Source: Spizellomyces punctatus DAOM BR117 (taxonomy: Eukaryota). Taken from it: 64,000 bases of DNA. The position numbers were made by a program, and so were the translations under genes. The stretch lies in the NCBI GenBank assembly GCA_000182565.2, contig KQ257453.1; one strand, 5' to 3'. Shown piece after piece: positions 2,123-64,000 of the stretch. Each line of letters begins with the position of its first letter. Position 1 is the first letter of the stretch. The notes beneath the pieces are model-generated. The model saw only the letters and a program-made list of their open reading frames with translations, was not told where the DNA came from and ran no database searches.

Positions 2123-4528
2123 ATCTTTCCTGGATTTGCCATGATTCTCGGCCTTACTATCGCTCCGTTGATGACCCCCAGTCCTGATCAAGAAGATCAA
2201 ATCAATTTGTGGATTATGTTTATGGGTGTGTTATTTCGTATTAATCAGTTAATTGAAGTGCCCCGCCTGACAATGATTTCTAAATACCCTGCCCGCTCGT
2301 TCAGCTGGTTTGGCAGTGGGGGCCTTCTTTTTCAAGTGGGGACTCACTTGGGCATACGGATTGGCTAATGCGAGACTCACCAGTCGCCTGCGGCTGGCAA
2401 CACTTGGCAGTCTTTTACAGCAAGAAATTGGTTTTTTTGACTCGAAGTCGAATTCCGTTGGAGTCCTGATTACCAAGCTCGCCCTAGTTGAGGGAGTACC
2501 TCACTTGGTTACGGACATTCGGAAGGAGTTATCGCGCAATGGATTGTGAGTTTACTCAGCTTGTAGTGGAAAGCCGACATTCGTGTGCAGTGTTTGATCG
2601 ACTGTCCTTTTGCATTTCAGCACGGTGGTGTTTGGCATCGCTCCATCGTTCGCTTCTCAGTGGTCATGACTGTGGTATGGTTATACAACTCCATCTCCGT
2701 GTTATTGTACAGTGGCTCATATAAGACCTTCGCAGATCATGCTCGGTTTGGCACCCTTCATATTTCTTGCATCCTTCTGGCAGAGTTATTCCCTTTCCAG
2801 ATACGTCGACGCAAGTAAGGAAGCTATTGAGCAATCAACACAGATTGCCATTGAGTCTATTCGGGAAGTGAAGACCCTGAAAGATCTCCGCGGGAGGAGT
2901 TGCCCGTAAGGCGTTATGAAGGTATTGCAACGATTGTACATTTACCCAGCAGCAATAACTTATCCAACACTGAACCACATGATTGGTGAAATGTTGCAGC
3001 ATTCTTGAAAAGACCATTTGCTCTCAGTAAGAGAAACGCATTCATAGACAGTATCCCATATGCATTCCAGAACGCGGCCACTACCCTCACTGTCTGTGGT
3101 GGTCTTTCTGCGGGGGCCATGTTGATGGAAAAGGGGACCGTGACATTAGCGAACATGCTTACTGCAATCATGGGCATGTTAATGTCGACGATCTCGATCG
3201 CGGATTCTGCCGGGCTTGCTACGTCGTTTGCCAAAGGAAAATTTGCCGCCCTTTCGGTAAGAAATCTGCGGCAGTCCTCCGCACTCCTCACGAAATCCTT
3301 GTACATGTCTTCAGGTCGTCGCTGACGAATAGAAACCTCGTTTCATGTTAGACTTTTGCTCTCCTGGATCGCAAAACACTCATTGATGCGGATCATCCGG
3401 GAATTGCGTCTCGTGACTTTGAACCTAGCGTCAAATTGTCGAACGTCATATTCGCGTATCCCACCTCACCAGATCTTATCTTCGACGGCCGGTTCAATTT
3501 ACAGTGGGCACCGTACAAGTCCTTGGCGCTGGTAGTGTTGTTCAATTGACTTTTCGCTCCAGAGGCGGGGTCTTAAAAACGCTATTTCATCTGACACGGG
3601 CAGGTCGGACCCTCCGGTTGCGGCAAGTCCTCCGTTTTGGGTCTTCTGCAACGTTGGTACGATGTCAACGCAGGCGAAGCACGAATCGGAGATATCCCTA
3701 TCAAGCAATACCATCTCCGAAACGGGCTGCGTTCTCATATGGCTCTGGTGGGACAGGAGCCAATTCTATTTGACCTGTCCATCATGGAAAACATTGCTTG
3801 GGGCGCCGAGCATGGGGCATCCATGAAGGAGGAGATTGTTGAAGCAGCGAAAATGGCTAATGCTGATGTTTTCATCCGCGACCTTCCTGAAGGTATTGGC
3901 AACCGGACCGCTTGTCCCCATAAAGATAGAGCATTTCCAATAAATCATTTGACCCATAGGATATGACACTCGTGTGGGTCTGAAGGGAGGCCAGCTTTCA
4001 GGAGGTAATGTCATGGCGATTATCCTTGACGCATATTCTAAGTTGATCTAATGCTCTCTGGCTGCTTTCGGTTTCGTCGTCTATTTTATATAGGCCAGAA
4101 ACAGGTAAACCCTTCCTCCTGGCTTGTCTTCCGATCATGATGGTATTGCTGTACTTCTCCCGCTGTTCTTTTCAGAGAATCGCCATCGCTAGAGCGCTGA
4201 TCCGGCGACCGAAAATGCTCCTGTTGAACGAGGCGACCAGTGCGCTCGATTCAGCATAGTGAGCAAGAAGTCCAGAAAGCCATTGAAAATGCTTCCAGTG
4301 GAAGGACAACCATCACCATTGCTCACAGGTATGAGGATTGAATTTGCTCACCTCACATTGATGGAAAGCTTCTTTGTTGAGTCGAGCAATCCCAGACTCT
4401 CTTCCATCAGAAACGTTGATTGCATTGCGGTGGTCAATGAAGGACAAGTCGTCGAACTCGGACGACATGATGAGTTGATAAAGACCAATGGGCTTTACGC
4501 GTCGATATGCCGGCAGCAAGATATTTGA
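2123..4528 (+). pseudogene. ABCB1/MDR-type ABC transporter pseudogene (C-terminal TMD2-NBD2 half only)
   Basis: Spliced pieces read QQEIGFFD, IAIESIREVKT, Walker A GPSGCGKS (~3607-3630), ALVGQEPILF, signature [16 protein letters not shown], Walker [12 protein letters not shown] and TIAH/RLSSI. Frameshifts occur near 2665, 2890 and 4257, and the Walker B Asp is changed to Asn. No N-terminal half is visible. Confidence 0.85.
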
Positions 4529-5402
4529 TAACCGCCATAGAACAATGGGCCACCGAATTGTTCGTTCCTGACCGTCTCAAACACTTCTTCGCGCGATACA
4601 TCCTGGAAAACTCGAATAGCGTAACTTTGTCGTCTCGCGTACCGGATGAGCAACATCTTCGGCTGCTTCGCTTTTTCTTTGTTCAGTATATCATGCGTGC
4701 ATTCATCATAATGACTTGGAACAACGTAGATAGGCCAAAAATATATTCGAGAGCTGCACAATCCACTTGACAGAAAGGCATGCGATTGTCCTGCAGCCAG
4801 GATTAAGCGTTCAATGTAACGTCAACACACCGCGCCACTTTCACTGCTGAACTTGGCTAGCAAACTTCTGCGACCAAACTCTCCTGAACTTCCATTGCCG
4901 CGCACCATTGGACACTCACTTTCCTGTCCATAGTGCCGACTGAAAATAACTTCACATTTTAGTCTTAAGAGGAAGCCTAGCTCGAGCTTCATAGAATCTC
5001 CTCATTAAGATGTCTGTTACGATATACGGGACGAATCAGTACAGTGTCCCGTTGTAGTCTGATTTCTCACACAGCTATGTGTTGGACTATTTTCGCCCGC
5101 AAAGTCCGAGGGTTAAACAGTCGTCAAGTACGTTGTTGTCCGCACATTTTAGTATAAATGCCGTTCAGTCTCACAAGCTGTTGATGCATGCCTTGGGGTT
5201 CTATTTTGCTGTACCTGGTTGAGTGTTCAGTCAAACCATGCTGTTGATTTGGAGTACCGACTTATTTTGAAAAACTACCTGTCGCCAGTGGAGATGCTCT
5301 AACCCTAAGGCTTAGCCCAACCGTAGCCACACTAAGCCCATTCGTGGCTCGTCACATCTTTAAATTCTCTCTGCCTTTTGCCTCCATTACAGGCTGTCAC
5401 CG

Positions 5403-6303
5403 ATGAGAAGTAAGTGGGTAGTAAATAGCAGCCGCGAAAGGGTTAATATCTGCAGTTCAGATAAAGGCGCAGATGGACACTGAAGACATTTCCAATCCCG
5501 ATGAGGATGGATGGTCCAGCGCAGCTTCAAGTGAATCGGATCCGACCTACGTTCCTCCTTGGTATGGGGAGGAAGCTGATGACTACGAGAGTGGCGACTC
5601 TTCCGACTCTCATTCTGATTCTTTCTACGAACGGGAGGCACAAGAAGTAGAAGAAGCGGCTATGAATGAAGAAGCTGATGCGGAAGCAAAAAAACGTTAT
5701 CGACATCTACGACGATATCTAGAGACGAAAGTCGCTAACCCTCAATTTGACGAGAATCCATACATACCGAGCGACAGCGAAGCGAGTACGTGCACTGATA
5801 TGGAGTATCAAGCCTCCTGGCTTGAGAGACTCTATCTACCAGATATGGTGGACGACATGGACATCAGCGCTGATGACAACGTAGCTGGTTCCTCCTCGTC
5901 TGCTGCTGGGAATCAGAACAGCGAAGAAAATCCCGCCATAAGAGAAGATGCTGACGAATACGTGAGTAGTGATGGGCTGGAAGGGCTATATTCAGAACAT
6001 CTCGCCATAAGGCAGATGCGTTTTGAGCAATGCCGTACAGATTTTTGCTTGGATCGCGATGGAATCAAGCAGCTTGTCCGGGAGGCTGCGGCATTGGTGC
6101 TATCTAATACCAAGTTCACCAGAAAAGCGATTGATGCCTTGCAAACCGCGGCCGAAGATTTTCTTGTGCAAAGATTCAAGCTTGCTTACAGGCTGGCTTT
6201 GAGCAATTATAGCGCTTCTGCTGACAATGAAAAGCAAGTGAAGCTAACTGTGAAGAATTTCTGGGTGGCGTGTGCAATTATGGAGGGACGAGATTACCCG
6301 TAG
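5403..6303 (+). CDS. Divergent histone H3-fold protein with long acidic N-terminus
   Basis: The C-terminal ~95 aa (AIRQMRFEQCRTDFCLDRDGIKQLVREAA..TKFTRKAIDALQTAAEDFLVQRF..KQVKLTVKNFWVACAI) align with H3 ([68 protein letters not shown]). A micro-exon 5403-5409 and intron 5410-5455 (GTAAGT..CTGCAG) splice in frame to ORF 5473-6303. Confidence 0.75.
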
Positions 6304-8017
6304 CTGGTACAGCACTGTAATGTACTGCAGCGATAGATAGAGATTGGTGCATCTGAACTGCTTACATGAGGACTTTGGTGTGGCTTTTTTGGCGATCCGC
6401 ACAAGTTGCCGTCTTTTATACGATGGACGCAGGCAAACCTGGTGCCTTGTGAATGGGAATTACACATAGCCAATATGGGTGCGTCTATAGTGTCGTCATC
6501 TAACCATGCAGTTGCTAAATGCCAGTCTGCCCACCCTGGTAACAGCTACTTTAAGATCTTCAGCAATTTTTCTCTGAGATTGCATACGAAACATTTGGAC
6601 ATTGCAAACTAAGGAATTTTCGGGTGTAGAAGCCATTTCTGGTGATGAAAGTAAGCATAACCCGAACCTGTGAGAGGGGTGCATACTTATGTCGGGCATT
6701 GAGCTGTGTACCACCATGTTTTCAAAAAATACTGCCATAGTTGCAATGATTGTAGACAAGGCTAAACGACTGCTATGCTTGAACGGTAAATAGGTCGTAT
6801 AACTAGACGAGTCCAATTAACTCCCTTATTGCATATGCCACACTCTGCAAAGATTCTGTTCACGCATATGATGGGCAACATGCGGATATCCTGCAATCCA
6901 AAGTCAGCCTTTCCTTGTCTCGAAATCGGCAGTTCGCTGATCAGTAAGCATCGACATCGTGCTGGTAAAATACATCATGACAATGGGCTCATGTCATCCA
7001 TAGCGTAAAATATAACTTTACAAGTGAAGAGTGGGAAGCCAAAGTGTAGTGCAATGTTTATGGTAAAGTCATGCATGGATACCAGTACAAACGAACATCA
7101 AGTTTATTTCAGGCAAAGAATCAAAGAGCGTCGGACTACACTACGTTACCCTATGAACGACGACTCTCCCTCATTAATTGCGCATACGTTGTCTTGCACC
7201 CTGTAACACGACTAGCCACAATCGCCTTAACGCAACGCTCCTTGCCAACGTCACGGCAGTTGAGATGGTCGAAACGGTGCTGGCGAGAGCGGTTAACGGA
7301 GGATGAGCAAGCGTATAGGTTGTTGGGATGGTCACTTCCGCCATTTTTGCGGGAGATGATGTGGCATCTGCAAGTATCGAAACGTATAAGCTGCTACTGA
7401 ATAGAGGGGAAGGCTTGAAGAATAGCCATTCACGTACTTATCCTGCCCAGCTCGAACGACCAATTTCCCAGTACGGCCGTCACTCCCGCGACAACAACCG
7501 ATGGTCTTGGCGACTTTGGTCACGACCCGTTGGTTGCTGCGTACCGTTTTACGAATCCCACAATCTACGTAGTATTGGCTACCATCCGCACGCTCGTATG
7601 TCTTCAATTGACGATTGGTGTATTTTTGGCGTTTGCACATGTTGGGTAGTTTGCGTGAGAGTGAATCTTTTAGAAGGGGTGCTTTTATAGGAATTGTGCG
7701 CACATTAGAGATTTCTGCGATCCATGTTTGGCTGACATGCTGGGATGCGAGATGGTATGAAATGATAAAAAAAATTGAATTAGTGCTACTATGCTGAATC
7801 GCTGTCGCTGATTTTCATCGACAGGATATCTTCGGATATCCAAGATATCTTGGACCTTCGGACGCGTCACACAAGCAACTACTAGTGGGTGGGATATCTA
7901 AATGAAAAAAGGAAAACAAATCTATGCTTGCAGCCAGCCCCGATGTAGGCACCCACGGAGTATAAATAACCCATCGCTTTTCTTCGCCACCTCAACTCTC
8001 CAGCACCCAAATTCAAT

Positions 8018-8506
8018 ATGGCTCCCCTCTCCCGTAAAAAAGATCTTTGCAACAAGTTCCTCGACAGCGAACTTCGACGTGCCGCCCGCAGATACGGTAT
8101 CTCCGTAACCGACCGACTCAAAGACGAAGTCGCCTTAGCTCTCTCCCGAGCGCATATCAGCGACGCTCAAATCCGACGAGCCAATTCTACATATGCCGTG
8201 GTCGAGAGATCAGGACGCGCGGCAATCATGCCCTACCGTCCCAATTCCCATCGTGCACACTTCTCCGGTGGCCAACACACTCTCACTTTCGGTGGCAATG
8301 GGGATGTTTACGCCAGCACGTATGCTCGTATCGGTCCCAACCATCGTCGATTGATCAGAGATGAATTCGATTCGTATGATGCTGCGTTTAATGCAGTTCA
8401 GAGTGAGACTGCGCGGGTTCACGGGACTTGGCGGCACTTTCCCGTGATTTTTTCGCGAGTGGAAGGGTTGAGTCGGGTGCACGTAGAGCGCAATTGGGGT
8501 GGTTGA
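8018..8506 (+). CDS. Hypothetical basic protein (162 aa)
   Basis: Intact ATG-initiated ORF with TATAAATA at ~7961. The N-terminus resembles a HeH/Rho-N-like helical nucleic-acid-binding module. Confidence 0.55.
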   Translation: MAPLSRKKDLCNKFLDSELRRAARRYGISVTDRLKDEVALALSRAHISDAQIRRANSTYAVVERSGRAAIMPYRPNSHRAHFSGGQHTLTFGGNGDVYASTYARIGPNHRRLIRDEFDSYDAAFNAVQSETARVHGTWRHFPVIFSRVEGLSRVHVERNWGG

Positions 8507-10317: not shown

Positions 10318-10508
10318 GATCAGACGTGATGAGGCAGTGTGCAGATATCTATTAGCTCATCGCATGAGCCGTTCTTTGTCAAGTGTATCTATACGCCTTA
10401 TAGTACAGTTGCTGATCAGACGTGATGATCAGTGTGCAGATATCTATTAGGTCACCGCATGAGACGTTCTTTGTCAAATGTATCTATACGTCTTATAGTA
10501 CAGTTGCT
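10318..10508. repeat. Tandem duplication, 2 x ~96 bp
   Basis: gatcagacgtgatga...tatagtacagttgct occurs at 10318-10413 and 10414-10508 with few mismatches. Confidence 0.9.
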
Positions 10509-10547
10509 GAATCAGAAGAGAAAGCAGTTCTTTGTTTACAATTATGA

Positions 10548-10638: not shown

Positions 10639-11234
10639 TCTATAATAATTCCCTTCGGGTGTAGAAGCCATTTGTGGTATCAAAAAAAAAAAAAAAAAAA
10701 AAACCATAACCCGAACTTATGAGAGGGCGGTATACTTATGCGACATCTTGTCACCGTGAACCACCACTCGTTCACAGTCTCGATCCTTTTGGCGCTATTT
10801 TTCATTGACGGACCTTCGTGCATCAGCACTTCCGCGACAAACGACACAGGGTCAATACACCATGACATTTCCGATGAAATCAAAGAATGAATTCCAATAC
10901 AATCTGTTCAGACATAAAATGGCTGCGGCAGAAAGTTGCCACCTATAGCATAATAAAAAGAACCATAAAATCTAGCCCTTACATTAAGACTATTTGTCTA
11001 TATGTGTTTACATCCGTGTGCATTTGGGGCGTACGTGCGTGTGTGTGTTTGTAGCACAGAGGAAAGAAGCGTGGATTGCAATCTCCACAATCTCGCATGT
11101 ACAAAAGAGGGCAGAGTGCGAGCGTACTCATGAAAGGAGAGCAAAGGCGAATATAGAATGGTACTGTTCACCAAGGACGTACACGACACAGAAATCACTT
11201 GTGCTGTGCGTTGCTGAAAGCGATCAGGAATACG

Positions 11235-12152
11235 ATGAGCATCAAGATTGAAGTTCTTTGGGGTCCTGAACCAGAGGGCAAGTTTATCACCCTGCCACTG
11301 GCGTCCGGGCGGTTTCAAAAGATCTTATTTGATCGCAGTTTGCCAAAGGTTCTTATTGTGGGAGAAGGCAAAAACTTCACATTCACAGCCGCCTTTGTAG
11401 CGCTCAGACGATCCTTCGAGAACGTCATTACAACCACATGGCCAGTTCTTTCGCCGGATTGGAGTGAAGTGGTAAAGACTGCCTTGTCGAATGCGCACAG
11501 AAACCAAGAGTTCCTCGCCAAGTCTGATCTTTATGGTAGATGAATTTGCCTGAGCCATGGCAGAAACATTGATAACAATCTCCTTTCACTAGATACCACG
11601 TCATTCACCGTTGAAGAAGTATATACTCGCTACGGAAGCATTTTTGGTGTATCACCTTCCACTGGTCCAACCTATATCGGAAATGTCAATGCGACAGAAC
11701 TTGAAGAACACGACAATATAATTCACAGTCATTGCGAAAACATTTTTTTCCAGTGTCCCCACGACGGGCAATCGGGAACCCAGCACCTGATTGTGAGTTT
11801 TATGTCGAGTGCCGCGCGGGTGCAGAAGGCTGGGAACTACCTGTTCCTTGGAATCACTAAAGATGGACGATATTCCAATGTTTATGGCCTTCGTGAGCTT
11901 ATTGAAACATCTGCACCAAACATCGGTTATCGGTTGGAAGGGGTCGATGACATTACTATTCAAAAGATACTGCATTTTGGGTACAGGCATCAAGCAAGAA
12001 GAGATGAAGATGATATCCATGACAGAATATTAGCGCATCATGTTACGCTTGTTTTTCATAGAGAGGTTGTTTGGTTTTGCTTGAACAAACAGCCTTACAC
12101 GATGAATATTAAATCGGCATTTTTTCAAAGGACTCTTCCAGTAGCCCAGTAA
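11235..12152 (+). CDS. DUF2431 / BMT5-like (rRNA uridine-N3 methyltransferase-type Rossmann) protein
   Basis: Motifs KVLIVGEGKNFTF, NVNATEL, NIFFQCPH and LIVSFMSSAA match the DUF2431 pattern ILLVGEGNFSF..IDAT.L..IIFNFPH..LL..FF.SA. Intron at ~11536-11593; the 3' end may be spliced differently. Confidence 0.7.
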
Positions 12153-12803
12153 ATGCAAATGATTTGAGTGACGAGTTTGCCTCGAGGCTCAACATTAGAG
12201 AACCTCAGAGAAGAACCGGGATTGAATATTCTGACGATGAAGGATAGGAGGTTCAAAGGGAAAAAGTTAAACGGGAATGAAGGGTGGTCGGCAATCATCA
12301 TTTAATGCTTTGTAGAGACGGCTAAACCAAATATAATAAGGGGCTGGAAATCGGTGGACAGCTGCTCTCATAGACACGCCGATGCTTGAATAGAGACTGA
12401 TGCAGTCAACTCAATCCATTACACATTTTCCTGTTTTCACTGGCAGCTGTTGCATGTTCGCTGAATCGATTTGACCACGCCTCCGAGCACGCTTCGGTTA
12501 GGACAGTTTTAGTACCACATACGCATGCATGGTTATTTTTAGGGTTAAGAGTGTCCAATGCGTAAGGAGCATTAGGCAACAGAACGCCAACCACTTCAGT
12601 TGTGAGTTGAATTGCCCGATAACGTAGGGAAGACTTTAAATCGGAAAGTTTCACTGCGTATGCATAAAGCGCACAGTAAGCAGTAATAAATAAAGCAATG
12701 TCGGACAAGAGCGCGCTTTGAGGATGACTCAGGTCGAAACATGAAAAGCGGACCTTTTATAAACCTCACGACGCAAACAGTAAGCCATCATCAAATCAAA
12801 AGT

Positions 12804-13766
12804 ATGGACGAACAGAAAGTATCTGAAGCCAATGTTCTCATCATATACGGCTTTGGCAAGGATGAGAATATGCCGAGTGGGGTACGGCCGCAATCCATAT
12901 GATACATGACAAGTTGCATTGTTCCTGCTCATTTACCTTTTACTACAGTCTGGTTTCTGTCAAAAGGTAGAAACCTTTGCAAGAGCGACAAAAATCCCAT
13001 ATGAGCTCCGCGCAACTCTGCCTGATCGTGCGCCGAAAGGAAAGCTTCCTTACATTACTTTCGGAGATGAAACTGTCGCGGATTCCCATTTCATTTTAAA
13101 ATACGTCGTCCAGAAGCGTATCTCTCGGGATCTAGATGCCTCTTTAACTCCTTCTCAAAAGGCGGACTCCCGCGCTTTCCAGTCATATATTGAGGAGCAT
13201 TTGTATTCGTGTATTTGCTATGAGAGGTGGATGGTAGATGCCAATTATCAGGTTGTCGTCCGGGAGTCCTTTTCGGCAGCTCCGTCAGTACTTCGACCAT
13301 TGTTGGGCTGGTACTTTTGGAGAAAAGTGAGGTCCGGATTGTGGGCACAGGGCGTGGGAAGGCATTCGACTGAAGAAGTCTATGGGCTTCTGGAGGACGC
13401 TGTAACCCATCTCGCGGCAAGGCTGGAGGTTCAGTTTGACATCACTGCGGACAAGTCAAGACACATTTACTTTCACGGAGGAGAGAGCCCCACCCAGATT
13501 GATGTCATTCTTTATGCGTTCCTTGCCAACGCTATCGCAACTGATTCGTGAGTAGTGAACCTGTGACTACGAAAAGGCCAGCGCATGTTTGGCTTTGGCT
13601 AATAATGCAAAATCCTTTCCTCTCTACCAGCAATCCGTACTTTAACAAGCTTATGCTTGCCCAGCCAGCACTGGTGACATTTACAAGACAAATGACGACT
13701 CTTTTGTTTCCCGAATACACAAAGGTCTTGGAAAAGCTAGACGCTGGTACTCTTGCGAAAGACTGA
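12804..13766 (+). CDS. Metaxin / failed-axon-connections (FAX)-like glutathione S-transferase-fold protein
   Basis: SGFCQKVETF..APKGKLPYI..VADSHFI..TQIDVILYAFLA. Three exons, with introns at ~12882-12948 and ~13548-13630. Confidence 0.85.
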
Positions 13767-14724
13767 AAAAGCAACTCTTGACGAGTTGAAAAGCGGCTGA
13801 CCCTTCGATCCAACCACCAAGTGACAAAGCCGTTCGTTCATCATATGCCTTATGTAACTTACACCACAAGTGTAAAAATAGATTTGGATGATGGATGGAT
13901 GTAAAGACAGAGGGAAATCCGTTTTGGGACCTCTGCACGTGCTGTATGAAATTCTCTCCCTTTGAGTACCGAGGGATGGACAACGTGGAGGAGTTTGTGC
14001 TCTCGCTCCGTCAAGTAGAATCAAGTGCATCTATTTTCTTTTGTGTTTGTGGAATGGTGTGGGGAACAATTCGAAAATCTCTGTGGAATTATCCATCTCA
14101 GTTTGCTTCTGTTCTTGTCTTACGATCCGCATGTTCTCTTTTTTTCGTAGCGGCTTTGAAACAATGCATGCAACATTTCATAGTGACCAATCGTATATTG
14201 CATATTTAAAGTCATTGACACATTTGACATGAAATTGGCGCCCAACACAAAACTTTAAACGTATGAAAATGGATATCAACCAGCCCTCTATTCAAACTCC
14301 TCACCGCCTCATCTCTCTTGAATCTACAAAAGCGGGCTTTTGGCTGTTTCCCATGTCCGATTTGTGTTTTTTTGACATTTGCTTTCTGTCCAACCACCAA
14401 CTTGTGTTTGCATGCTAAAAGAAGAAAGAAAAAAAAAAAAAAAGTTGATCGGCCCTCCCATTCTGCCAAATGCTTTAATCCACTCGGGCGAGGGCATGGC
14501 AGCATGTGCTGAAGTTTCAAACGATAAAAAGCACTCGAATCACATCTGTTAATGGGATAGGGTTAAGAATGTTAAATGTTCTTGTAGAAAAAACGATTCG
14601 AATTGTCCAATCGAATGTTCCTGTTTCCAAAATGGGGCGTATCAAAAGAATTGAGAAAACATTTTTTTCTGCCAAAAGACAAATCAAACCGTTTCAAAGA
14701 GCCGCGTGTTCTGAGATATGTCTG

Positions 14725-14936: not shown

Positions 14937-16728
14937 ATGGCAGCTACACGGCAAAATGCTTTCCAAGCCCTCGATGAGGCAAAGTTTGGTCGCTCTCATG
15001 TGCGCGCGGTCTTGGTGTCTGGTGTCGGTTTCTTGTATGTTCAACATATCGCATTTCTAAAAACGCAATGGGAAATGAAATCTAACTTGCGTTTTTGGTT
15101 AATCCAGTACTGATGCCTACGATATCTTCATTATCGGTCTTGTTGTGCCAATGATCGGTTTTGTATATTTCCAAGACAATGGCGGCAAAGTCCCTACGTT
15201 CCCTGGGTCCAGTATCGATTATGACGGTCTTATTAAGGGTGTTTCCATTTGGGGTACTCTCCTTGGTCAATTGGTCTTTGGTATTCTTGGTGACAAGTTG
15301 GGTCGTAAGAAGGTGTATGGTGTGGAGTTGGGTATTATGATTGTGTCTACCATTGGTAAGTTTTCCGGCATCAATTAATTACGACAGAAACGATGAAAAT
15401 CTTAACATTACATTTTTTGCCAGGGTGCTGCTTCGCGTCCAACACTGCCCGTGGTATCGGTATTCTTGCTATGCTCGGTTTCTGGCGTTTCTGGCTTGGT
15501 TTCGGTATCGGTGGTGACTACCCCGTTTCCGCTATCATCACCTCAGAGTTCGCCACTGTCAAGAGGCGTGGTCAAATGATGGCCATGGTCTTCTCCATGC
15601 AAGGAATTGGTATCTTGCTCGGAGCCCTTTTCGCCTTTATTGTTCTTGCCTGCTTCAAGAGTGCGCTCACCGATACATCAGACCCTCAAGCTTACCTCTA
15701 CTTTGACTACGTGTGGCGTATTTGCCTTGGTCTTGCTGTCATTCCCAACTTGTGCGCTATTTACTTCCGTCTTACCATCCCTGAGACACCCCGTTACACC
15801 GCTGCCATTACTGGAGATGCCGAAAAGGCTGTTCGAGACTCTGAGAGATTTGTCAACGGAGGTGCCGACACTACTGGCATGCACACCCCAGCCACTGGCG
15901 CTGTCGTCCCCGCAAAGAAATCCAACAGTTTTGCCGAGTTCAAGGCATTCTTTGGAAAACGGGAGAACTTCAAGCTCCTTTTCGCCACATCCCTCTGCTG
16001 GTTCTGCCTTGACGTTGCCTTCTACGGTCTTTCCCTCAACAACTCTGTCGTCATCAGCAACATCGGGTTCAAGACCGACAAACACTCGTCGCCATACGAT
16101 GTTATCCACGCCCAGGTCGTCGGAAATGTTATCATTGCGTTCTGTGGAACGGTTCCAGGTTACTACTTCTCCGTCGCATTCATTGAGAAGATGGGCAGGA
16201 AGAAGATTCAATTGATGGGCTTCGCCATGTGCACGATCATCTACGTCGTTTTGGCTTCTGCATACAACAAGATCCTCGAAACTAGCACAGCTCTTTTCAT
16301 CGTCCTCTACTCTCTCGGCATGTTCTTCAAGAACTTTGGAGCCAACATGGTATGTTGACACCACACAGGCAATTCCATCCGATAATGTAACCATTGCTCA
16401 TCTTTACTGTTCTGCGCAGACCACCTTCATCTACCCTGGAGAAATCTTCCCCACCCGCTTCCGATCCACTGCGCACGGTATCTCCGCTGCTGCTGGTAAG
16501 GCAGGTGCCATTCTGGCCGCTCATGGTTTCGCGAAATGGAAGGCAGACCTTGGGCTTGACGGTACCTTGGGTGTGTTGGCGGGTTTCATGTTCATTGGTT
16601 TCTTGACAACTTTCCTTTTGCCTGAAACGGCCGGCCGTAGTCTTGAGGAAATTAACAACGAGGGGGTATATGACCCAGAACACACACATGGCGAGAAGGA
16701 GCGGGATGTAATTGAAGTAAAAGCCTAA
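14937..16728 (+). CDS. PHO84: High-affinity phosphate:H+ symporter (MFS, PHS family)
   Basis: ALDEAKFG..GVGF/TDAYDIF, GDKLGRKKVYG, signature GFGIGGDYPVSAIITSEFA, IPETPRYT, NFGAN/TTFIYPGEIFPTRFRSTAHGISAAAGK. Three introns. Confidence 0.95.
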
Positions 16729-24206: not shown

Positions 24207-24308
24207 ATACAGAATCAAATCTGTCTACTTTATTATATTCTAAATATATATACAACAGTGGACAACTCTGCGAATCTTGCCGTCCGCCCATGACCTCTCT
24301 TGCCCATC

Positions 24309-25208
24309 ATGACAAGCATTGACTTGATAATAAAAATAGGTGGGTCAGTCCTAACAGATAAAACCAGCTACGAAACCCTCAGTCCACGTTCCCTCCTTGA
24401 CCCCCTCTTCGACTCCATCTCCAACCTCCACGCGACGACCAGATTCCTCCTCATTCACGGTGCCGGCTCGTTTGGCCATCCACACGCGCATGCAGCGGGT
24501 CTATCAATAGGGTTTACTCCACCTTCTCCAAAACATGTTTTGGGAGCTGCAAAGACACGACATGCTGTTGCTACGTTGAATAGAATGGTTGTTGGTGAGC
24601 TGATTGATAGGGGGATTCCGGCTGTGTCTGTCAACCCTGGGTCATTGTTGGATGGGAATTGGTCTCGCGGGGAAGGTACAAAACCGGACCCGCCCCCACA
24701 GACTGCTTATACGGCTTTATTGCGACATGTCACTGCGTTGATAGACGCTGGATACATCCCGGTCTTACATGGAGACGTGGTATCAAGTCCATTGTTTGGA
24801 TCCATGATACTGTCTGGCGACGATTTGATAGTAGCTTTTGCCTATGCACTCAAACCTAGACGAGGTTGTGTATTTCTTACTGATGTAGACGGAATATTTG
24901 ATCGGGATCCTAAAGTCTTTGCTAATGCTGAACTGTTACGAACCATTCATGTGAACCGAAAAACGGGGTCCTCAAATTGTAATTGCGTGACATCCGAGTC
25001 CATAACTGTGGGGAGTGCTGTAGATGTGACAGGTGGCATGTCCAAAAAGCTGGCCTCTGCGATTGCTGTGGTGAGAGGTCCGCTGGAAGATGTGCAATGG
25101 AATTGTCGGGTGGTGCTGGTAAAGGCGGGTAGTGATGATGCAAGCAAAGCGTTGGCTGGTGACTTACTCAATATTGGGACAACCATGTTAGGCGATGATC
25201 AGGCGTAA
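24309..25208 (+). CDS. IPK: Isopentenyl phosphate kinase (amino acid kinase family)
   Basis: IIKIGGSVLTDK, IHGAGSFGHPHA (IPK-specific His), IPVLHGDVV, ILSGDDL, FLTDVDGIFDRDP, DVTGGMSKK. Intronless. Confidence 0.88.
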   Translation: MTSIDLIIKIGGSVLTDKTSYETLSPRSLLDPLFDSISNLHATTRFLLIHGAGSFGHPHAHAAGLSIGFTPPSPKHVLGAAKTRHAVATLNRMVVGELIDRGIPAVSVNPGSLLDGNWSRGEGTKPDPPPQTAYTALLRHVTALIDAGYIPVLHGDVVSSPLFGSMILSGDDLIVAFAYALKPRRGCVFLTDVDGIFDRDPKVFANAELLRTIHVNRKTGSSNCNCVTSESITVGSAVDVTGGMSKKLASAIAVVRGPLEDVQWNCRVVLVKAGSDDASKALAGDLLNIGTTMLGDDQA

Positions 25209-37569: not shown

Positions 37570-39860
37570 ATGGCTACGGACACGCTTGCCATCAACACGA
37601 TTCGCACACTCGCTCCTGATGTCGTCCAAAAGGCAAACTCTGGTCATCCAGGCGCTCCCATGGGATGTGCTCCCATGGCTCACGTCTTGTTTTCACGCTT
37701 CATCTCTGCCAACCCACAGAACCCTCACTGGGTATGTCTTATTGGTTTTTTTTTATCACGTATTGCTTGCTCACTTTTGTTGTTTCGCAGATTAACCGCG
37801 ATCGCTTTGTTTTGTCAAACGGTCACGGATGTGTTCTGCAGTATGTCATGCTTCACCTCCTCGGCTATGACTTGTCCATGGAGGACCTGCAATCCTTTCG
37901 TCAAGTAGGCTCAAAGTAAGAGTTTTTTTATGGTTGGGATGAACAGAGAGGGCATCGCCATTGTGGCAAAATGCCCGTCGTGTCCCACTTTTGCCTTACG
38001 TTCCCCTCGTCTATGCCACTCACTAACGCTCGGTCATGACTCGTTGCCAGAACCCCAGGTCATCCAGAGGCAAACCACGGCACACCAGGAATCGAGGTTA
38101 CTACCGGCCCCCTCGGTCAGGGCATTGCCAGTGCCGTCGGTCTCGCTATTGCAGAGGCCCACCTCGCCGCTGAATTCAACCAGCCCGGCTTTGATCTCGT
38201 TGACAACTACACCTACTGCATCCTCGGTGACGGTTGCATGCAAGAAGGCGTTCAAGCGGAAGCCGCTTCCTTGGCTGGCCACTTGCAACTGGGCAAACTC
38301 ATTGCCTTGTACGATGACAACCACATTCAGATTGACGGAGACACTGCCCTTGGATTCACAGAAAATGTCCGCTTGCGCTACGAATCTTATGGCTGGCACG
38401 TTCAGTTTGTCGAAAACGGTGACTCGGACATTGCCGCGTTGACCAACGCCATTGAAGCCGCCAAAAAAGTCACAGACAAACCATCCTTGATCCAAGTCCG
38501 CACCACCATTGGCTATGGATCAAAGAATGAGGGAGAGGAAAAGGTTCACGGTGCTCCCCTCGGCGAACCCGATATCGCTCAAGTAAAGACCAAATTTGGT
38601 TTTAGCCCCGACCAGAAATTCAATGTCCCCCAACAAGTCTATGACTTTTACGGCAAGGTAGCTGCCAAGGGCAAGGACGCAGAAGCCCAGTGGAACCAGC
38701 TCTTTGACCGCTACGCGGCTCAGTTCCCTCAGCTCGCCGCTGACTTTAAGCGTCGCCTCGCCAAAAAACTCCCAGACAACATCAAAGATCTCTTGCCCAC
38801 CTACAAGCCCAGTGACCCCCCCGTGGCGACCCGCAAACTCTCTGAAACCGTCTTGAACAAGATCGCCCCACAGCTTCCCGAGCTTATTGGTGGTTCGGCC
38901 GATTTGACTGGCTCAAATCTGACCCGCTGGAAGGGCGCCGAAGACTTTCAACCCCCATCCACTAAACTTGGCTCGTACAAGGGCCGCTACATTCGCTTTG
39001 GTGTCCGCGAACACGCCATGGCCGCGATTTGCAACGGTATCTCTGCTTACGGGGCCTTGATTCCCTTTGGAGCCACCTTTTTCAACTTTATCAGCTACGC
39101 TCTCGGTGCCGTCCGTTTGAGCGCATTGTCCAAGCATCACGTTTTGTACATTATGACCCACGACTCGATTGGATTGGGCGAAGACGGTCCTACCCATCAA
39201 CCCATTGAGACGCTGGCCTGCATGCGCGCCATGCCCAACATTCTCAACTTTAGACCCGCGGATGGCAACGAAGTCTCTGGCTCCTACCTCGTGTCTCTTG
39301 AAGCCCACGACCGCCCCTCTGTACTGATTCTCACCCGCCAAAACCTCCCCCAGCTCGCCGGCTCCTCGATTGAAGCCGTCCGTAAGGGCGCCTACGTCCT
39401 CGAAGACGCACCCAACCCCTCGGTCATTCTGGTCGCCACGGGTTCCGAAGTCTCCCTTGCGGTCGACACGGCCGCCCAGCTTGCCAGTGAAAACATTGCT
39501 GCTCGCGTTGTTTCAATGCCCTGTTGGGAGCTCTTCGAGGAGCAATCGGTCGAGTACCAGCAATCCGTCTTTTTGGATGGCGTGCCTGTCGTGAGCATTG
39601 AAGCCATGTCAACGTTTGGATGGCAAAAGTGGGCGCATTTGACGTGTGGAATTGATACTTTTGGTGCGAGTGGGCCTTACAAGGTATGTCTGTTATTTTT
39701 TATCTTTACTTTTGCATATACTGACCATGACAATCTGGGATTTAGGACTTGTACAAGAAATTCGGACTGGTTCCTGATGTCATTGCTGCCAAAGCTAAAA
39801 AGCTGATTGCCTTTTACAAGGACCGCAAGCCCGAGAACAAGATTCAGAGGATTTAAATAG
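37570..39860 (+). CDS. TKL1: Transketolase
   Basis: [63 protein letters not shown]. Introns at ~37732-37790, ~37917-38050 and ~39685-39745. Confidence 0.98.
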
Positions 39861-48128: not shown

Positions 48129-48934
48129 ATGCACAGTCTTGCTATTCTCACATTGTCGCTGGTCAGCGTAGTGGTTGCCCAGAATGAAGGTGGCCCAGTG
48201 TCGCTGCCTCGTCCAATTCCTTCCTTGACTCTCCCATCTGTGCCATCTGGGTTCCCTACTACTTTTCCTTCGGCGTTCCCATCGGCGTTCCCAACCATTG
48301 CTCCATCTAGTCTGCCGCAGACAGCGGGACCGTCCAGTGTGACAGCAAGTATAGCACCCAGTGGAGCGCCTACCCCGAGGGCCACAAGTTCTCCGACGAA
48401 CCCAATAGGCAATTCCCCAAGCAATCTACCAGGAGGAGGTAAATGACCACGAATCTAAGCAAAAATCATACTATGACAAAGGTGTTGATTCATGATCATC
48501 CTTGGCTATTAGATTGCATGCAACTAGTGAGTGGGCTCGTCGACTGTGAAAGTGAATTTGTCCGGGCTGCCATTACCCAGTCCATCGATTACCCCTCCGA
48601 AGCCTTTGACACGGCAATCGCAAAATTTAGCTCCTGCACATGCGACATGTTCGGAAAACTCAATAGCCTCCAAAGCTGCAAGAGCAATATGAACGACCAA
48701 GAGTTGAAGGATGTGAAAGGCGTTTGTGCCGAACAGCCTTTGAGTGTCAACAAAGTTTTCCTAGCCATTGGAAAGGCTACCGGACAAACTGCTACGATCA
48801 AGTTGCCAAATGGAAAGACTGTCACCCCACCGTTCAAGAATGCAAAGGGTGAGGTTGTCAACAGTGCTCAGAACACTGGAGCCTCTCTCATGGGGGTCAT
48901 TGGGTTGGCTTTGGCTGTCGTTGCTGCTATGTAG
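48129..48934 (+). CDS. Secreted, probably GPI-anchored surface protein (P/S/T-rich stalk plus 6-Cys domain)
   Basis: Signal peptide MHSLAILTLSLVSVVVA, intron 48439-48512, and C-terminal NSA..GASLMGVIGLALAVVAAM GPI-type signal. Confidence 0.8.
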
Positions 48935-49261: not shown

Positions 49262-52200
49262 ATGTCCAACGATATGATGGCACTGTACTGGGAGTTGGCC
49301 TCCGTCGACCCCACAGTACGTCAAAAAGCTGCCGACAAACTTGTCCGCGCTCTGTACACATTCCAGCATGATCTCCACCCAACACTGGAAAACGCCGTCT
49401 CAACGCCTTCAGGCGATAATTTGGACCAACTTTGTGCACAGGATGTATCGTACGGTATTAAGCGATTGCTGAGAGGGTTGCCTTCTTCGAGGGATGGAGC
49501 CCGGCAGGGGTTTGCGGTTGCTTTGACAGAGGTGGGTGTTGAGCTGCTCCCACGGGAACGAATTCAAAAAAATGACCAACTTTTTTTTTGCTCAGTTGCT
49601 GAAAAGTTTGGAATTTCTTCGAGTCTCAACGGCTCTGTCTCTACTCGCCAAACTGACACAAACCGAAGGAGCAAAAGGCCAGGAGGAGCGGGATATCCTG
49701 TTTGGACGGATCTTTGGGTTAATGGCCATATGTCAGGCGGACATGTTGGCAAGACCGCATACCACGATTGAAGATGTACAGGAGATGGTGACGAGGCTTT
49801 TGAAATATGCATCGAGCAAGTCGTACATCAAGGAGACTTGCTTCAAAGTGTTGATAACCATGGTGGAGAAGCTACATGAAACAAAACTAGAGGCGGAGGC
49901 TGTGGAGTATGTTATTCCCACTGTTTTGAGCAAGGGGATTGAGGGTCCAGAGGAGCTGTGGTTTGCTATTGTCATGCAATCTCGGTATCCAAAGTTTGCA
50001 TGGGCATCCGTCCTCCCATCCTGGAGAGATGGTTCAGTCCTCCACACAAAGAACAAGACACAGCTTGTCGCGATTCTCAAAGAGTCGACGTACACTATTC
50101 CACGCGTTCACTTGGTATGGGACGCCTTGTTGGATGCTGTGCTTACCAGCCCTCCATTAAGCAAGCTCTCCATTCGGGATTTATGGAGCGTCCTCGATGA
50201 CGCACTGTTTTCCTCCTCTTACGAACGCAAATTCCTTGGTTTACTCCTCTTTCAAAAGATTCTTCCCCGTCTTGATGCGACCGAGGTTCCATTCTTGTTC
50301 ACACCTCAACTCCTCCGCACACTGATCAACAACCTTGCGAAACACGACAATTACCTGCATAAAGTCGCCAAACAGACGGCCAGCATGCTTTCAACTGTGG
50401 CCTTAGAGCGGAAAGATGTTGCATTGCAGCTGGTGTTGCAGCTGGTCGGGAAGAATGGACATCAGAGGTTCGATCAGGTGACCAAGACGAAAACAGTTGA
50501 GAACATCTTGGGTAGCTTGGAAGGAGAAGGAATCGAAACCTACATCAAATATCTCCAAGACATGTTTGTAAACCAAGGTGAACCGGGTGACGCAGGGGAG
50601 GCGGATACTGTGAATCAACGCCGGCAATGGGCCGTAGACCAGATGTTGCTTCTTTTAAAGAACGGAAAGATCCCAAAGGAGGAAAAATGGATCCAGCGGA
50701 TTGCGCGTTTCGTATGGCTTCATGCTTTTTTCAAGGTTCAAAAAGCAGACCCAAAGGTGGATGTGATTCAAGTCCCGCGTCCAGAGGTATCCGACGCTAC
50801 TAGGGAACTTTGCACAGAAAGACTAGGTAGCTTGTTGGCCACACTTGCCGGAATTGCTTTGAAATCAACTGGAGGTGACATTTTCTCCTTCTTCTGGATC
50901 GACCGGTATGCGCAATACTGAATCTTTACTCTATTTTAGAAACGCGATTGGCCCCAGGGACCATGACAGATGGCCAGTATTGGGCAAACGATCTCCACAC
51001 CTTCACGGTGGATCTTTCCAAGAACAAGCGCGTATCGCTCCTGGTGGAACTAGACCAAGAAGCGCAACAAACCGTTCAAAACGCAACATCCACCCTTCAT
51101 TCCATTCAGAAGCGGATTACCAAACCCGAAGTGTCCCAAAACCGCGACGTCTTGGCCCAATACAAGGCCTTTGAGCTACTCTTCCTCCATCTTCTTCTCC
51201 ATGTGTATATTGAACCGGCGGAAGCTGTTGGCGTCCTCGACGAACTGAAGAATTGTTTTGACCTGTTTTTCCAGGACAAATCTGCAAGTCCTAAAAAGAG
51301 AAAGGCAAAGGATGCTGACGATATGGAAGAAGATCACGCTCCTATCGAGGTTTTGGTGGATATTTTGATCAGTTTCTTGGCGAAACCTTCCGCTCTCGTT
51401 AGGAGTTTGTCGCAGGATGTATTCAAAGTGTTTAATAACCAGTTGACGAAAAAGTCGTTGGACCTTATCTTTGAGGTTTGCACATTTTTATTTGTGATTG
51501 ATTTGCTGGTCGTCTGACTAAATGATTGTATTTGCTAGGTATTATCTGCAAAGGGCGGTGTTGCCGGTGCTCAAGAGCTCTTTGAGGAGGAGGAAGAAGA
51601 GGACGAGGATGTTGACATGGAGAGTGGTGATGCCATGGATGTTGATTCGAAACAAGAGGACGATGATGACGAAGACGATGAAGAAGAGGGCGAAGACGAG
51701 GACGAGGACGAAGATGATGATGATGAAGAAGAATCTGGAGAGGTGGACGAAGAGCTTCGACGTAAAATCAAGGAAGCCCTAGGCAATGCCGCCATCGACG
51801 AAGAAGATGATGATTCAGACGAAGAGGCATTTTTGGATGACGATGAAATGGAGGCATTTGATGATAAACTGGCAGAAATTTTCCGTCAACGAAAGGAAAT
51901 AAAAACCGCAAAGAAAGGTACTGTGACAAAAAACCTGTACTGTATTCCCCCTGCATTCCTCCATTTCTTATGAATCTCCACTCTTTCCAGATGTCAAAAA
52001 TCAAGTATTGCACTTTAAACTCCGTGTGGTCGACCTCCTCGACATCTTCCTCCGTAAATCTCCTCAAAACCCGCTCGTCATCGAACTCATCATGCCCCTC
52101 ATCAAGCTCATCACAAGCACCTCACGTAGCACAGACGACAAAGATCTCCACGAGAAACTCCTGTCCCTTGCTAAAAACAAGCTTTTCAGGCTCAGGGAAG

Positions 52201-60400: not shown

Positions 60401-61211
60401 TCGTCTATCGATCCGACAAAGACTTCTAAGAGGCCCTTGACATAGACGCCTCGGGTCTTCTCTTCATGAATGGGGAGATTATCATTGCTGGGATTCAACA
60501 AATCACGGATCTTTTCCATGTAAATTTCCATGAAGGAGACGCGGACGGTAAATTCGAGATGGGGAGGGGAAGTAAAAATGGTTGAAAAGATGTTTTCGAC
60601 GATACGCGGTGTCAATCCCTTCATTTCCTCATTTTCCATGTCACCCTATAACCTCGCCTGTCAGCCCCGCAATGCCTGTTATACAAAGGGGATCCAGCAA
60701 TATACCATCATTGTGTGCGTCTTTCCACTCCCAGTTTGTCCATACGCAAAGATTGTTCCATTGTATCCCCTCATAACATCTAACATGCTTGGAATCAGAT
60801 ACCGCGTATCGTCAAGACAACCATTGCGCAGTTACCTTCTATCACAGCGCTCGCAGAATAGGCGAATACAAGCTCCTGAGTTGTATTCCAGTCGAACACG
60901 CGGTCAAAGTTGAAGGTGCCAGGGTAATCTTTACTCTGCAAAGTGTCAGGTCAGTGGATTTAGGTCGTCTGATATTGAGAACATGGCATGATGCTGTGCT
61001 CACCTCCAGCCGAACGCTCGTCATCTCATCATCAAACTGCACAACCGGCACACCACCCTCTTTGATTTCCCTCCCATTTTGCGGTCGAAACCGGCAAACA
61101 ACTCTAATGGAATCTACAAAGGGAGAGTCGGTTGAGATCATCAGATATGTGAGATCTGCAACCAGTAAGAGCCATACCTCCTGCTGCCCTGCTTGGGCTG
61201 TCTGCTAGCAT
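57499..61211 (-). CDS. Kinesin-1 heavy chain (fungal conventional kinesin)
   Basis: [43 protein letters not shown], tail [20 protein letters not shown] and IAKPLRGGG, end KRSSWY. Confidence 0.96.
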
Positions 61212-62890: not shown

Positions 62891-63092
62891 ACCATCGCCT
62901 GTATGTTTTTTTGGACAATTATTGTACATAGAATTTCATTGAGGGATGGCGACTACGATTCAAAGCACCATATTGAAAATCATTAAACACTATGATATAC
63001 ACGCGAATGTGAAAAATACTCCAATTGGATAAGACCCAAACGCTTGACTGCGTCTCCCGTTCTGATCCTCCTATACTCCTTTCTTATTCTTC

Positions 63093-64000
63093 TCATGAGG
63101 TTGCTCCCGCGGATTCTCCTGTTATGGATTTGCCTGTTAGTGTAATTCCGCCTTTGCCAACTACATGTGCAAGAGGAAGTTAGTTCAAAATATGGTCCAC
63201 GCAATGAGCTCTCCATGCTCCAGCATCCTAACCCCTCCAAACTCCGAACAACTGCTTGACACTCACTATCAATAATCCCCTTGGTTTTGAGCACGTAGAG
63301 TACAATCGCCACAACCACTAGCACAACAATCAACAAAATAAACACGATGAAGATCTTATCGGTCGCCATTCGTCTCAAAAACACACGCAATTGCTTTTCG
63401 GCTCGTTTGAGATTACTTTCCACCGTCGCAAGATCTTCCTGAATCTTGGACATCTGATTTCCCTGTTTCAAAACTTCATCTTTAACAGCCAATCCCATCT
63501 CCAACGTTTCCTCCACAATACGTTTCGTCCTTGCCGTCGACTGCTGGGTCTGCTCCTGGATTTGAATTGCGGTTTGAGTGATTTCTTTATTCGACATATC
63601 GTCGATAGTTTTTTTTTGCTTCAGATCATCGGTTTGGGCGGTTGTTTCGGCCCATTGGACATCTTGCGTTAGTTGGGCGATTTTCTGCTCGTAGGCTTTG
63701 GCTTTTTGATCCCAGGTGGTTGTTGGAGGGGGAAGTTCGCGGATTTCGACGAGGAGGGTTCTGTGTAGTTTTTTGGCGCGGTTTAGCCGGTTTTTGAGGT
63801 AGCTACATTTCTGGTTTAGGATGCCGAGCGGGTGTGGTAAGGAAAGAGTGGAGGCGGTCGCCCAGTGAATACCAACCTCATAGAACTGATATTGTAATTC
63901 AGAAACAAACCTCCATACGCTCCTGCCCTTTCAGTCTTGGTAGTTCCTTCCCCAACACATTCTCAATCTGCTCAAGCACCTCTTGCATTTCCTCATCGTA
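63093..64000 (-). CDS. Qb-SNARE, NPSN (novel plant SNARE) type; 5' end outside window
   Basis: Habc region, SNARE motif with central Q (VLKQGNQM), LRRMATDKIFIVFILLIV plus TM. Confidence 0.8.

Follow-up and report, generated by a model that had tools for sequence, protein, structure and literature searches.

The locus described here raises the question of what becomes of an H3-type fold whose basic tail has been replaced by a long acidic region. Few proteins are known to be as constrained as histone H3. The gene in question lies on contig KQ257453.1 (assembly GCA_000182565.2) of the chytrid Spizellomyces punctatus DAOM BR117, in a stretch of 64,000 nucleotides that was analyzed as a whole and is referred to below as the window. 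Its coding sequence (5473..6303 on the + strand, stop codon included) specifies a protein of 276 residues, labeled P0001 in this study. P0001 is a non-canonical H3-fold protein in which an acidic, partly helical N-terminal region is fused to an αN-α3 domain. Much of this anatomy had been described in an earlier reading of the DNA letters alone (hereafter the original prediction), but that reading missed the link to giant-virus contigs, which code for H3-like proteins with acidic tails. According to the interpretation that we develop here, and to which we assign a probability of roughly one half, P0001 is a host-resident member of this giant-virus-associated family, probably acquired by transfer, which likely pairs with H4 and is unfit for canonical nucleosomes.

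An expressed gene coding for an altered H3-type fold

The coding sequence is a single uninterrupted frame. It runs from stop to stop at 5425-6303 (+), and the first in-frame ATG, at 5473, gives the 276 residues of P0001. Both the ESM Atlas and a public protein collection contain an identical sequence. Expression of the gene was assessed from an RNA-seq run (X10), in which 204 reads fell on the gene (160 of them at ≥99% identity), with the first mate nearly always on the + strand. The read depth rises from 0-2 across the 5′ part to 32-35 across 6222-6374, a profile that looks 3′-biased, and four reads continue past position 6372 in a loose stretch of A. Taken together, read strand, depth and the ends in A runs point to + strand transcription and polyadenylation about 69 nt past the stop codon, so that the 3′ untranslated region, as delimited by the X10 reads, extends over 6304..6372 (+) to a poly(A) addition site near 6372. 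Identical pieces of 5984-6532 in runs X1, X2 and X3 were not counted as expression, since these runs either consist of contigs or can only be guessed to be RNA. P0001 is thus the product of a real, expressed host gene, which is both intact and polyadenylated.

The intact frame had been noted by the original prediction, which also placed an in-frame intron at the 5′ end. The candidate is a 46-nt stretch at 5410-5455 (GTAAGT...CAG), the removal of which would put eight extra residues in frame from an upstream ATG at 5403. Although X10 reads lie on this stretch, no splice joint across it was reported in this run, at a depth (mean of 1.45 in the bin 5406-5456) that is too shallow to exclude splicing; the intron therefore did not find support. 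If the transcript is unspliced, the upstream ATG opens a 26-codon reading frame (5403..5483, +), which runs across the main ATG in a different frame.

The H3-type histone fold covers residues ~166-271 of P0001. Residues 176-237 (from base 5998) align to the αN-α2 part of H3, the best PDB match having an E-value of 3.1e-4, and all of the 60 listed PDB sequences (of 159 matched) represent H3 or H3 variants and chimeras. The Pfam Histone family, searched with P0001 alone, was matched with 21.3 bits (E-value 3.3e-4), which is under its cut-off of 26.4. A comparison of the family profile with canonical H3 using hhalign produced a probability of 98.4% (E-value 8e-15). The AlphaFold2 model, built with an alignment of 70 relatives (overall predicted template modeling score, pTM, of 0.43), has helices at residues 166-187, 195-209, 217-248 and 260-271, with block values of the predicted local distance difference test (pLDDT) of 79-97. 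When PDB was searched using Foldseek, every row shown was a chain of a nucleosome or a histone octamer, with typical template modeling (TM) scores of 0.8-0.9 by target and a root-mean-square deviation of ~1.6 Å over ~98 columns. PDB matches, modeled helices, Foldseek rows and the profile comparison all bear out the H3 αN-α3 likeness that had first been drawn by eye. Two other assignments were considered and rejected. TAF or other non-H3 folds are unsupported by the Pfam scan and by the Foldseek rows shown. As for CENP-T/Cnn1, in which a histone fold with additional helices at its C-terminal end follows a long disordered stretch, the corresponding Pfam family (PF15511, CENP-T_C) was unmatched even at E≤10, P0001 stops five residues past α3, and no CENP-T entry is present among the structural matches shown.

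The elements of the fold can be mapped onto the gene as follows. The H3-type αN helix (residues 166-187; 5968..6033, +) contains the MRFEQ motif, with Glu at H3 position 54. Helix α1 (residues 195-209; 6055..6099, +) is followed by loop 1 (residues 210-216), which aligns to H3 with zero gap and hence is of H3 length. Helix α2 (residues 217-248, AIDALQTAAEDFLVQRF...; 6121..6216, +) is extended at its C-terminal end. Compared with H3, about eight extra residues (NYSASADN; 6205..6228, +) are present at the junction of α2 and loop 2, their placement being alignment-dependent within a few residues. The surplus of loop 2 over H3 amounts to eight residues in P0001 and five in a related protein of Fimicolochytrium. 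Helix α3, identified by both AlphaFold2 and the alignment (residues 260-271; 6250..6285, +), is followed by five residues that form the C-terminus of the protein.

The most pronounced alterations concern residues on which H3 relies in the nucleosome, where H113 and D123 belong to the H3-H3′ four-helix bundle, while R63, R69, R116 and T118 make DNA contacts. The equivalents of all six are substituted in P0001, just as had been predicted. The substitutions relative to H3 are R63D, Q68K, R69Q, T107A, H113S and D123N, and the Ser equivalent to H113 sits just ahead of the loop-2 insertion. R116 and T118 are replaced by Q and K when aligned by eye and in one alignment, and by A and K in another, depending on where the loop-2 insertion is placed. 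In α3, R128, R129 and R131 are changed to C, A and M, and P0001 reads LSNYSASADNEKQVKLTVKN where nucleosomal H3 has a 12-residue stretch of loop 2 and α3 (HAxRVT...PKD). Among 30 basic-tailed H3s, R69, H113, R116, T118 and D123 are each kept in 27-30 sequences; at position 63, 12 of them have R and 10 have P. The isoelectric point (pI) of the fold is 8.9 in P0001 versus 10.3 for the H3 fold.

The acidic N-terminal region, delimited by composition, comprises residues 1-171 (5473..5985, +). It contains 47 D/E, 24 S, 15 aromatic and 10 K/R residues, which correspond to a pI of 4.05 and a net charge of -37. None of the H3-tail motifs ARTK, ARKS, KQTAR and TKQ is present in this region. According to AlphaFold2, residues 50-88 (5620..5736, +) form a long helix, predicted with block pLDDT values of 83-88 for residues 51-80 and 74 for residues 81-90. 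The only basic patch of the acidic region, KKRYRHLRR, is located in this helix. KRKR and RKR stretches are absent from P0001, whereas the viral-type set described below has KRKR just before αN. Since composition, fold, loop lengths and substitutions were all confirmed, the anatomy given by the original prediction is right. We also agree that the protein is neither a canonical H3 nor an obvious CenH3, as the tail and the bundle and DNA-contact residues are lost and loop 1 is not longer.

Relatives in chytrids and on virus-like contigs

A word-based search identified three relatives of P0001 (P0002, P0003 and P0004). P0002, the only named one, is 'uncharacterized protein EV422DRAFT_568672' from Fimicolochytrium jonesii (Spizellomycetales). 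It is 54% identical to P0001 over residues 125-273, loop-2 insertion included; for the fold, the identity between the two genera is 62-64%, and this includes both the insertion and the α2/α3 core. P0003 is related through the acidic region (46% identity over residues 19-195) and ends after αN. The two acidic regions have the short motifs SDPTY, DSFYERE, DSEAS and LYLPDM in common. P0004 (462 aa) resembles P0001 in the fold alone (45% identity over 71 residues). The F. jonesii model begins at the equivalent of P0001 residue 125 and carries eight extra residues in loop 1. In both P0002 and P0003, the gene model appears to be incomplete or mis-spliced, and the truncation not a genuine one.

A profile constructed from the four proteins was searched against 1.84 billion representative sequences, resulting in 6451 matches at E≤1e-3, including 528 at E≤1e-10. 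The only full-length matches were the four proteins from which the profile had been built, and the remaining matches in the list of 150 extend little, if at all, beyond the fold. A subset of the relatives has Glu at H3 position 54 (EIRxEQ). An N-terminal net charge of -14 or lower was found in 43 of the 151 proteins examined. The top fold-only matches (P0005-P0017) are long models that string together canonical histones (H3 repeated, H2A, H4) and probably represent run-through predictions across histone gene clusters. A search with a 23-sequence alignment returned three proteins only, a search with the fold region of P0004 returned only P0004 itself, and the ESM Atlas produced only generic histone clusters with scores of 0.77-0.84, below the level that counts.

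Acidic H3-like open reading frames (ORFs) of the Glu54 type were found on six distinct virus-like contigs (L001, L002, L004, L006, L007 and L037). Four of these contigs bear giant-virus marks: L001 and L004 by their genes, L002 and L037 by the GVMAG label. The ORFs are 423-602 aa long (that of L002 is a fragment only), with N-terminal regions of 325-503 aa and net charges from -32 to -74. L001 represents an end of an 81-kb contig from the viral collection, in which Erv1/Alr and Poly_A_pol_cat (PF19244, 1.9e-42) are encoded a few kb away from the H3-like gene. L004, a 26.7-kb metagenome contig syntenic with L001, carries Erv1/Pox_E10 and Poly_A_pol_cat (PF19244, 3.5e-38). We take PF19244 to be a giant-virus family. 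Directly downstream of the acidic H3-like gene, the two contigs contain ORFs that are 65% identical to each other (2429-4741, 770 aa, in L001 and 11917-14301, 794 aa, in L004). L037 has densely packed ORFs, most of them without a Pfam match, plus an RNA_pol_N domain. The neighbors of the H3-like ORF in L006 are ORFs without a Pfam match as well as ankyrin and MYND ORFs, and L007 is a 3-kb contig. The proteins from L002 and L006 also appear in the list of representatives, as P0146 and P0108, respectively.

Inspection of these contigs revealed some additional features. The gene order in L001 and L004 is conserved, with the H3-like gene followed by the 770/794-aa ORF and then by Erv1/E10 and the poly(A) polymerase catalytic subunit. 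The 770/794-aa ORFs have no Pfam match and contain an HTDLHxNN stretch reminiscent of kinase-like folds. In L037, a 433-aa ORF (7173-8474) has an RNA polymerase N/8-kDa subunit domain in its first 59 residues, followed by ~370 residues without a Pfam match. A broad H3 pattern applied to the viral collection picked out 31 loci (L008-L038), of which 28 are near-canonical basic-tailed H3 singlets (96-212 aa) on contigs filed as viral; the remaining loci include one acidic (L037) and two unresolved ones. An identical C-terminal stretch is common to L011, L015-L018 and L035.

We used phylogenetic analysis to place the chytrid protein among these sequences. The tree, derived from 72 fold sequences and 96 columns under the LG+G4 model, has a well-supported split (98/94) between 40 rows, including all 30 basic-tailed H3 types, and 32 rows, which consist of 29 acidic Glu54-type and three viral-contig sequences. 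P0001 and P0002 group together (100/98) on the 32-row side. Within it, they belong to a nine-row group (85/90) together with P0146, whose C-terminus is the GVMAG ORF of L002. A quick tree of 127 rows agrees on the placement of the chytrid proteins. In profile-profile comparisons, the chytrid profile scored highest with the L001/L004 type (169), followed by the GVMAG-linked group (135), divergent basic-tailed H3 (124) and canonical H3 (99). The same partitioning is seen in signature residues. Both E54 and D63 are present in P0001, P0002 and P0004; in the acidic set E54 is found in 28 of 28 and D63 in 13 of 28 sequences, as opposed to basic-tailed H3s, where E54 occurs in 3 of 30 and D63 is outside the three commonest residues.

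The tree also contains a second acidic-tailed cluster (P0022, P0023, P0025, P0030, P0032, P0041, P0057, P0086, P0089, P0111 and P0114), the proteins of which are of no known origin; several of them have EIRYYQSTTH at αN. Since this cluster nests in the canonical basic-tailed side, H3 folds seem to have gained acidic tails more than once.

Genomic setting, origin and possible role

The neighborhood of the gene is of the housekeeping type and not the accessory region that the original prediction had envisaged. The H3-like gene, one uninterrupted ORF, adjoins a fragmented, intron-bearing gene for an ABC transporter (exon at 3595-3966), a contrast that we count in favor of acquisition by transfer. 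Farther along the window are a BMT5-like gene (11544-12152) and genes for metaxin/Tom37 (12910-13551), a sugar transporter (15360-16358), an amino-acid kinase (24294-25208), a transketolase (38040-39806), Pol5 (49527-50921), a kinesin (59494-60645) and a SNARE protein (62983-63930). No other histone genes were detected in the window using tblastn: the H3 query returned this gene only (E-value 1.4e-6), and the H4 query returned nothing (best E-value 2.8). Some short repeats are present in the vicinity. Stretches of 25-44 nt just 3′ of the gene (6619-6691) recur 4 kb off (10654-10740) with 82-96% identity; in addition, there is a 95-nt tandem pair (10335-10510, 94%) and a 91-nt pair whose members are 932 nt apart (10548-10638/11480-11570, 88%). 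The window includes 154 N, with zero in 4800-7000.

We propose that the gene most likely entered an ancestor of these chytrids from a giant virus (Nucleocytoviricota) encoding such a protein, and that it has since acquired a host-like composition and was kept. The retained α1-α2-α3 core would allow an H3-type handshake dimer with H4, while the loss of H113/D123 and of R63/R69/R116/T118, together with the loop-2 insertion, would preclude both the (H3-H4)2 tetramer and DNA wrapping. With the H4-pairing core kept and the bundle and DNA contacts lost, a soluble H3-like/H4 dimer is to be expected rather than a nucleosome component. P0001 might then act as a soluble H4-binding partner, either a histone sink or a chaperone-like modulator, in which the acidic, aromatic-rich N-terminal region could provide a built-in shield for basic histone surfaces. 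A stronger version of this proposal, which we put forward only tentatively, is that a giant-virus histone was domesticated. An H3-like gene with which viruses interfere with the chromatin of their hosts would have been captured by an ancestor of spizellomycete chytrids, would have lost the contacts needed for the tetramer and for DNA, and would persist as a soluble H4-binding factor, which could regulate the supply of histones or, in an infection, serve as a decoy against the related viral protein.

Binding to H4 had already been suggested by the original prediction. We modeled residues 165-276 of P0001 together with a stand-in H4 (residues 193-275 of the concatenated gene model P0008), using no alignment. 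The pair scored 0.78 and the best of three controls 0.00; contact agreement between the runs was at least 84%, and the pLDDT of the partner was at least 70. Of 78 solved complexes, 51 reach the score mark applied, as compared with 2 of 108 mismatched pairs; on eukaryotes, the numbers are 39 of 65 for solved pairs without a similar older complex and 2 of 126 for unrelated ones. The model thus indicates that the P0001 fold likely pairs with H4. However, H3-H4 complexes have been solved many times over, and therefore the pass may reflect only the likeness of this pair to them.

A number of other observations weigh against a viral origin. The GC content of the gene is 0.486, and its GC3 of 0.464 falls within the range of its neighbors (0.449-0.611). 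There is no other virus-like gene in the window, as tblastx against L001-L007 matched the fold only, apart from a marginal 34-aa match of 48204-48305 to L006 (E-value 5.7e-4). If the gene was acquired from outside, the acquisition took place long ago. No close relative of P0001 or P0004 was found in the viral collection by scans with each of them alone. The similarity to viral proteins is limited to the fold (86-89 columns). Neither hhalign nor BLASTP could align the acidic extensions between subgroups or between P0001 and P0004, and that of P0004 aligned neither to the viral-type group nor to P0062. Because only the fold aligns and the acidic N-termini do not, the shared architecture could be convergent. 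Moreover, the acidic set keeps H113 in 22, R116 in 26 and D123 in 25 of 28 sequences, yet all three are lost in P0001 and P0002, and the conserved AIHAxRTxIxPKD stretch of loop 2 and α3 is not kept in P0001. The approximately unbiased (AU) test fails to reject the placement of P0001 and P0002 on the 40-row side, for which the log-likelihood is 17.6 lower (p 0.265). The composition of the acidic set itself calls for some caution. The search profile included the acidic region, so acidic-tailed matches were favored, and the presence of E54 in 28 of 28 sequences is partly by construction, since the Glu54 group was first chosen by this motif. Most proteins of the acidic set are of no known origin.

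These observations would also fit a home-grown paralogue, a fast-diverged duplicate of fungal H3, H3.3 or CenH3 in Spizellomycetales, with the viral likeness resulting from convergence, long-branch attraction or viral capture from such hosts. The canonical-side placement left standing by the AU test (p 0.265), the lack of homology between the N-terminal regions of the chytrid and viral proteins, the host-like composition and the housekeeping neighbors, nothing among which is clearly viral, are all in line with such an origin. In addition, viral histone singlets, those of H3 type included, are read as recent captures from eukaryotes in the accessible text of the published work (Irwin and Richards 2024, PMC11222145; Grau-Bove et al. 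preprint), and the transfer could consequently have run from host to virus. Nevertheless, we consider a home-grown paralogue rather unlikely, because the chytrid pair falls on the acidic/viral side of the 98/94 split, the profile scores favor viral-type groups (169 and 135) over canonical H3 (99), Glu54 and Asp63 are common to P0001 and the acidic set but not typical of basic-tailed H3s, and no full-length relative beyond a small group was found in 1.84 billion representatives. The possibility that P0001 is this chytrid's CenH3/CENP-A orthologue with an unusually acidic tail appears improbable. Loop 1 of CenH3 is usually, although not universally, longer than that of H3, its N-terminal tail is unalignable, and Q68 and T107 are replaced. 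P0001 does share with CenH3/CENP-A/Cse4 an H3-derived fold, a long, fast-evolving N-terminal region unrelated to the H3 tail and the replacement of Q68 and T107 (Q68K and T107A, both CenH3 traits), and it is single copy in the window. However, its loop 1 is not lengthened, and it has lost loop-2/α3 residues kept by all nucleosomal H3 variants (H113, R116, T118 and D123, each present in 27-30 of the 30 basic-tailed H3s) and gained the loop-2 insertion. In addition, the fold is less basic (pI 8.9 vs 10.3), the tree position is away from all 30 basic-tailed variants, and the full-length form is limited to a few close relatives.

It might also be argued that the gene is a remnant in decay, left by an old viral insertion or a duplicated histone gene and transcribed without function. 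The loss of nucleosome-critical residues, the low RNA depth (0-2) over the 5′ two thirds and the P0003 model breaking off past αN could be taken in this sense. Yet the 276-codon frame is intact and its mRNA polyadenylated, the fold is 62-64% identical to that of the F. jonesii protein, insertion and α2/α3 core included, short motifs of the acidic region are conserved, the fold is predicted with confidence, and a 3′-biased library fits the low 5′ depth, all of which makes a relic very improbable. Finally, H3-like genes may be carried and copied by DNA transposons. There is a fungal precedent, H3L of Pyrenophora tritici-repentis, whose genes are carried by hAT elements and are neither H3 nor CenH3 according to the accessible text of Manning et al. 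(2013, PMC3538342). As far as that text goes, H3L resembles P0001 in being an expressed fungal H3-like protein that fits neither class and has no known function; it differs in having a basic H3-like tail with insertions and in being multicopy in hAT, whereas P0001 has an acidic tail, one copy in the window and no visible element. At our locus, convincing terminal inverted repeats are missing, as the flanks contain one pair only, of 26 nt and 73% complementarity; moreover, there is no transposase domain in the neighboring ORFs and a single copy in the window, so carriage by a transposon can hardly be considered credible.

Comparison with known systems and implications

If P0001 is indeed a host-resident member of the giant-virus-associated family, its closest described counterparts would be viral. 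The accessible text of Talbert, Armache and Henikoff (2022, PMC9145170) reports H3-like proteins with ~170-residue N-terminal extensions of no known homology in two 'late phycodnavirus' metagenome-assembled genomes (MAGs), and suggests that single viral H3-like proteins act through host histones. P0001 shares with the MAG proteins a single C-terminal H3-type fold behind a long extension (~170 to several hundred residues). With the ORFs of our viral contigs (L001, L004, L006, L007 and L037) it shares a strongly acidic extension and Glu at position 54. On the other hand, the chytrid gene resides on a host chromosome among housekeeping genes, and its product has an unalignable N-terminus and no KRKR before αN. 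Compared with the viral members, it has also lost H113, R116 and D123 and carries the loop-2 insertion; for the two MAG proteins of PMC9145170 the comparison is with their description only. The H3 histones of mirusviruses, described in the accessible text of Gaia et al. (2023, PMC10132985) as distinct, highly expressed core genes, are likewise virus-encoded H3-type singlets, whereas the contigs considered here carry Nucleocytoviricota-type genes; this likeness, too, is by description only.

A parallel in terms of genomic context comes from capsid genes. Myers et al. (2026, PMC13533422, accessible text) report lone capsid genes of giant viruses on contigs of F. jonesii and Gaertneriomyces semiglobifer that are fungal in all other respects. 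The H3-like gene resembles them in being a single gene of likely giant-virus kinship, with host-like composition, on a fungal contig in the same order. However, those cases concern capsid genes, the word 'histone' is not mentioned in the accessible text of that study, and the viral origin of the P0001 gene is less secure. We found no published cellular acidic-tailed H3-like gene of this kind, although the supplements of histone or giant-virus surveys may list one.

A protein of the H3 fold that is expressed, retains the core for pairing with H4, lacks the tetramer and DNA contacts and has an acidic front end represents a natural separation-of-function variant of a histone. Spizellomycete chytrids can be cultured, and genetic work is feasible in at least one species. 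The localization of the protein, its partners and the consequences of its loss are therefore directly approachable. If the kinship with acidic H3-like proteins of giant viruses holds, the chytrid protein would be linked to the question of how single viral H3-like proteins act on host chromatin, and it would also bear on the reach of giant-virus genes into fungal genomes beyond capsid remnants.

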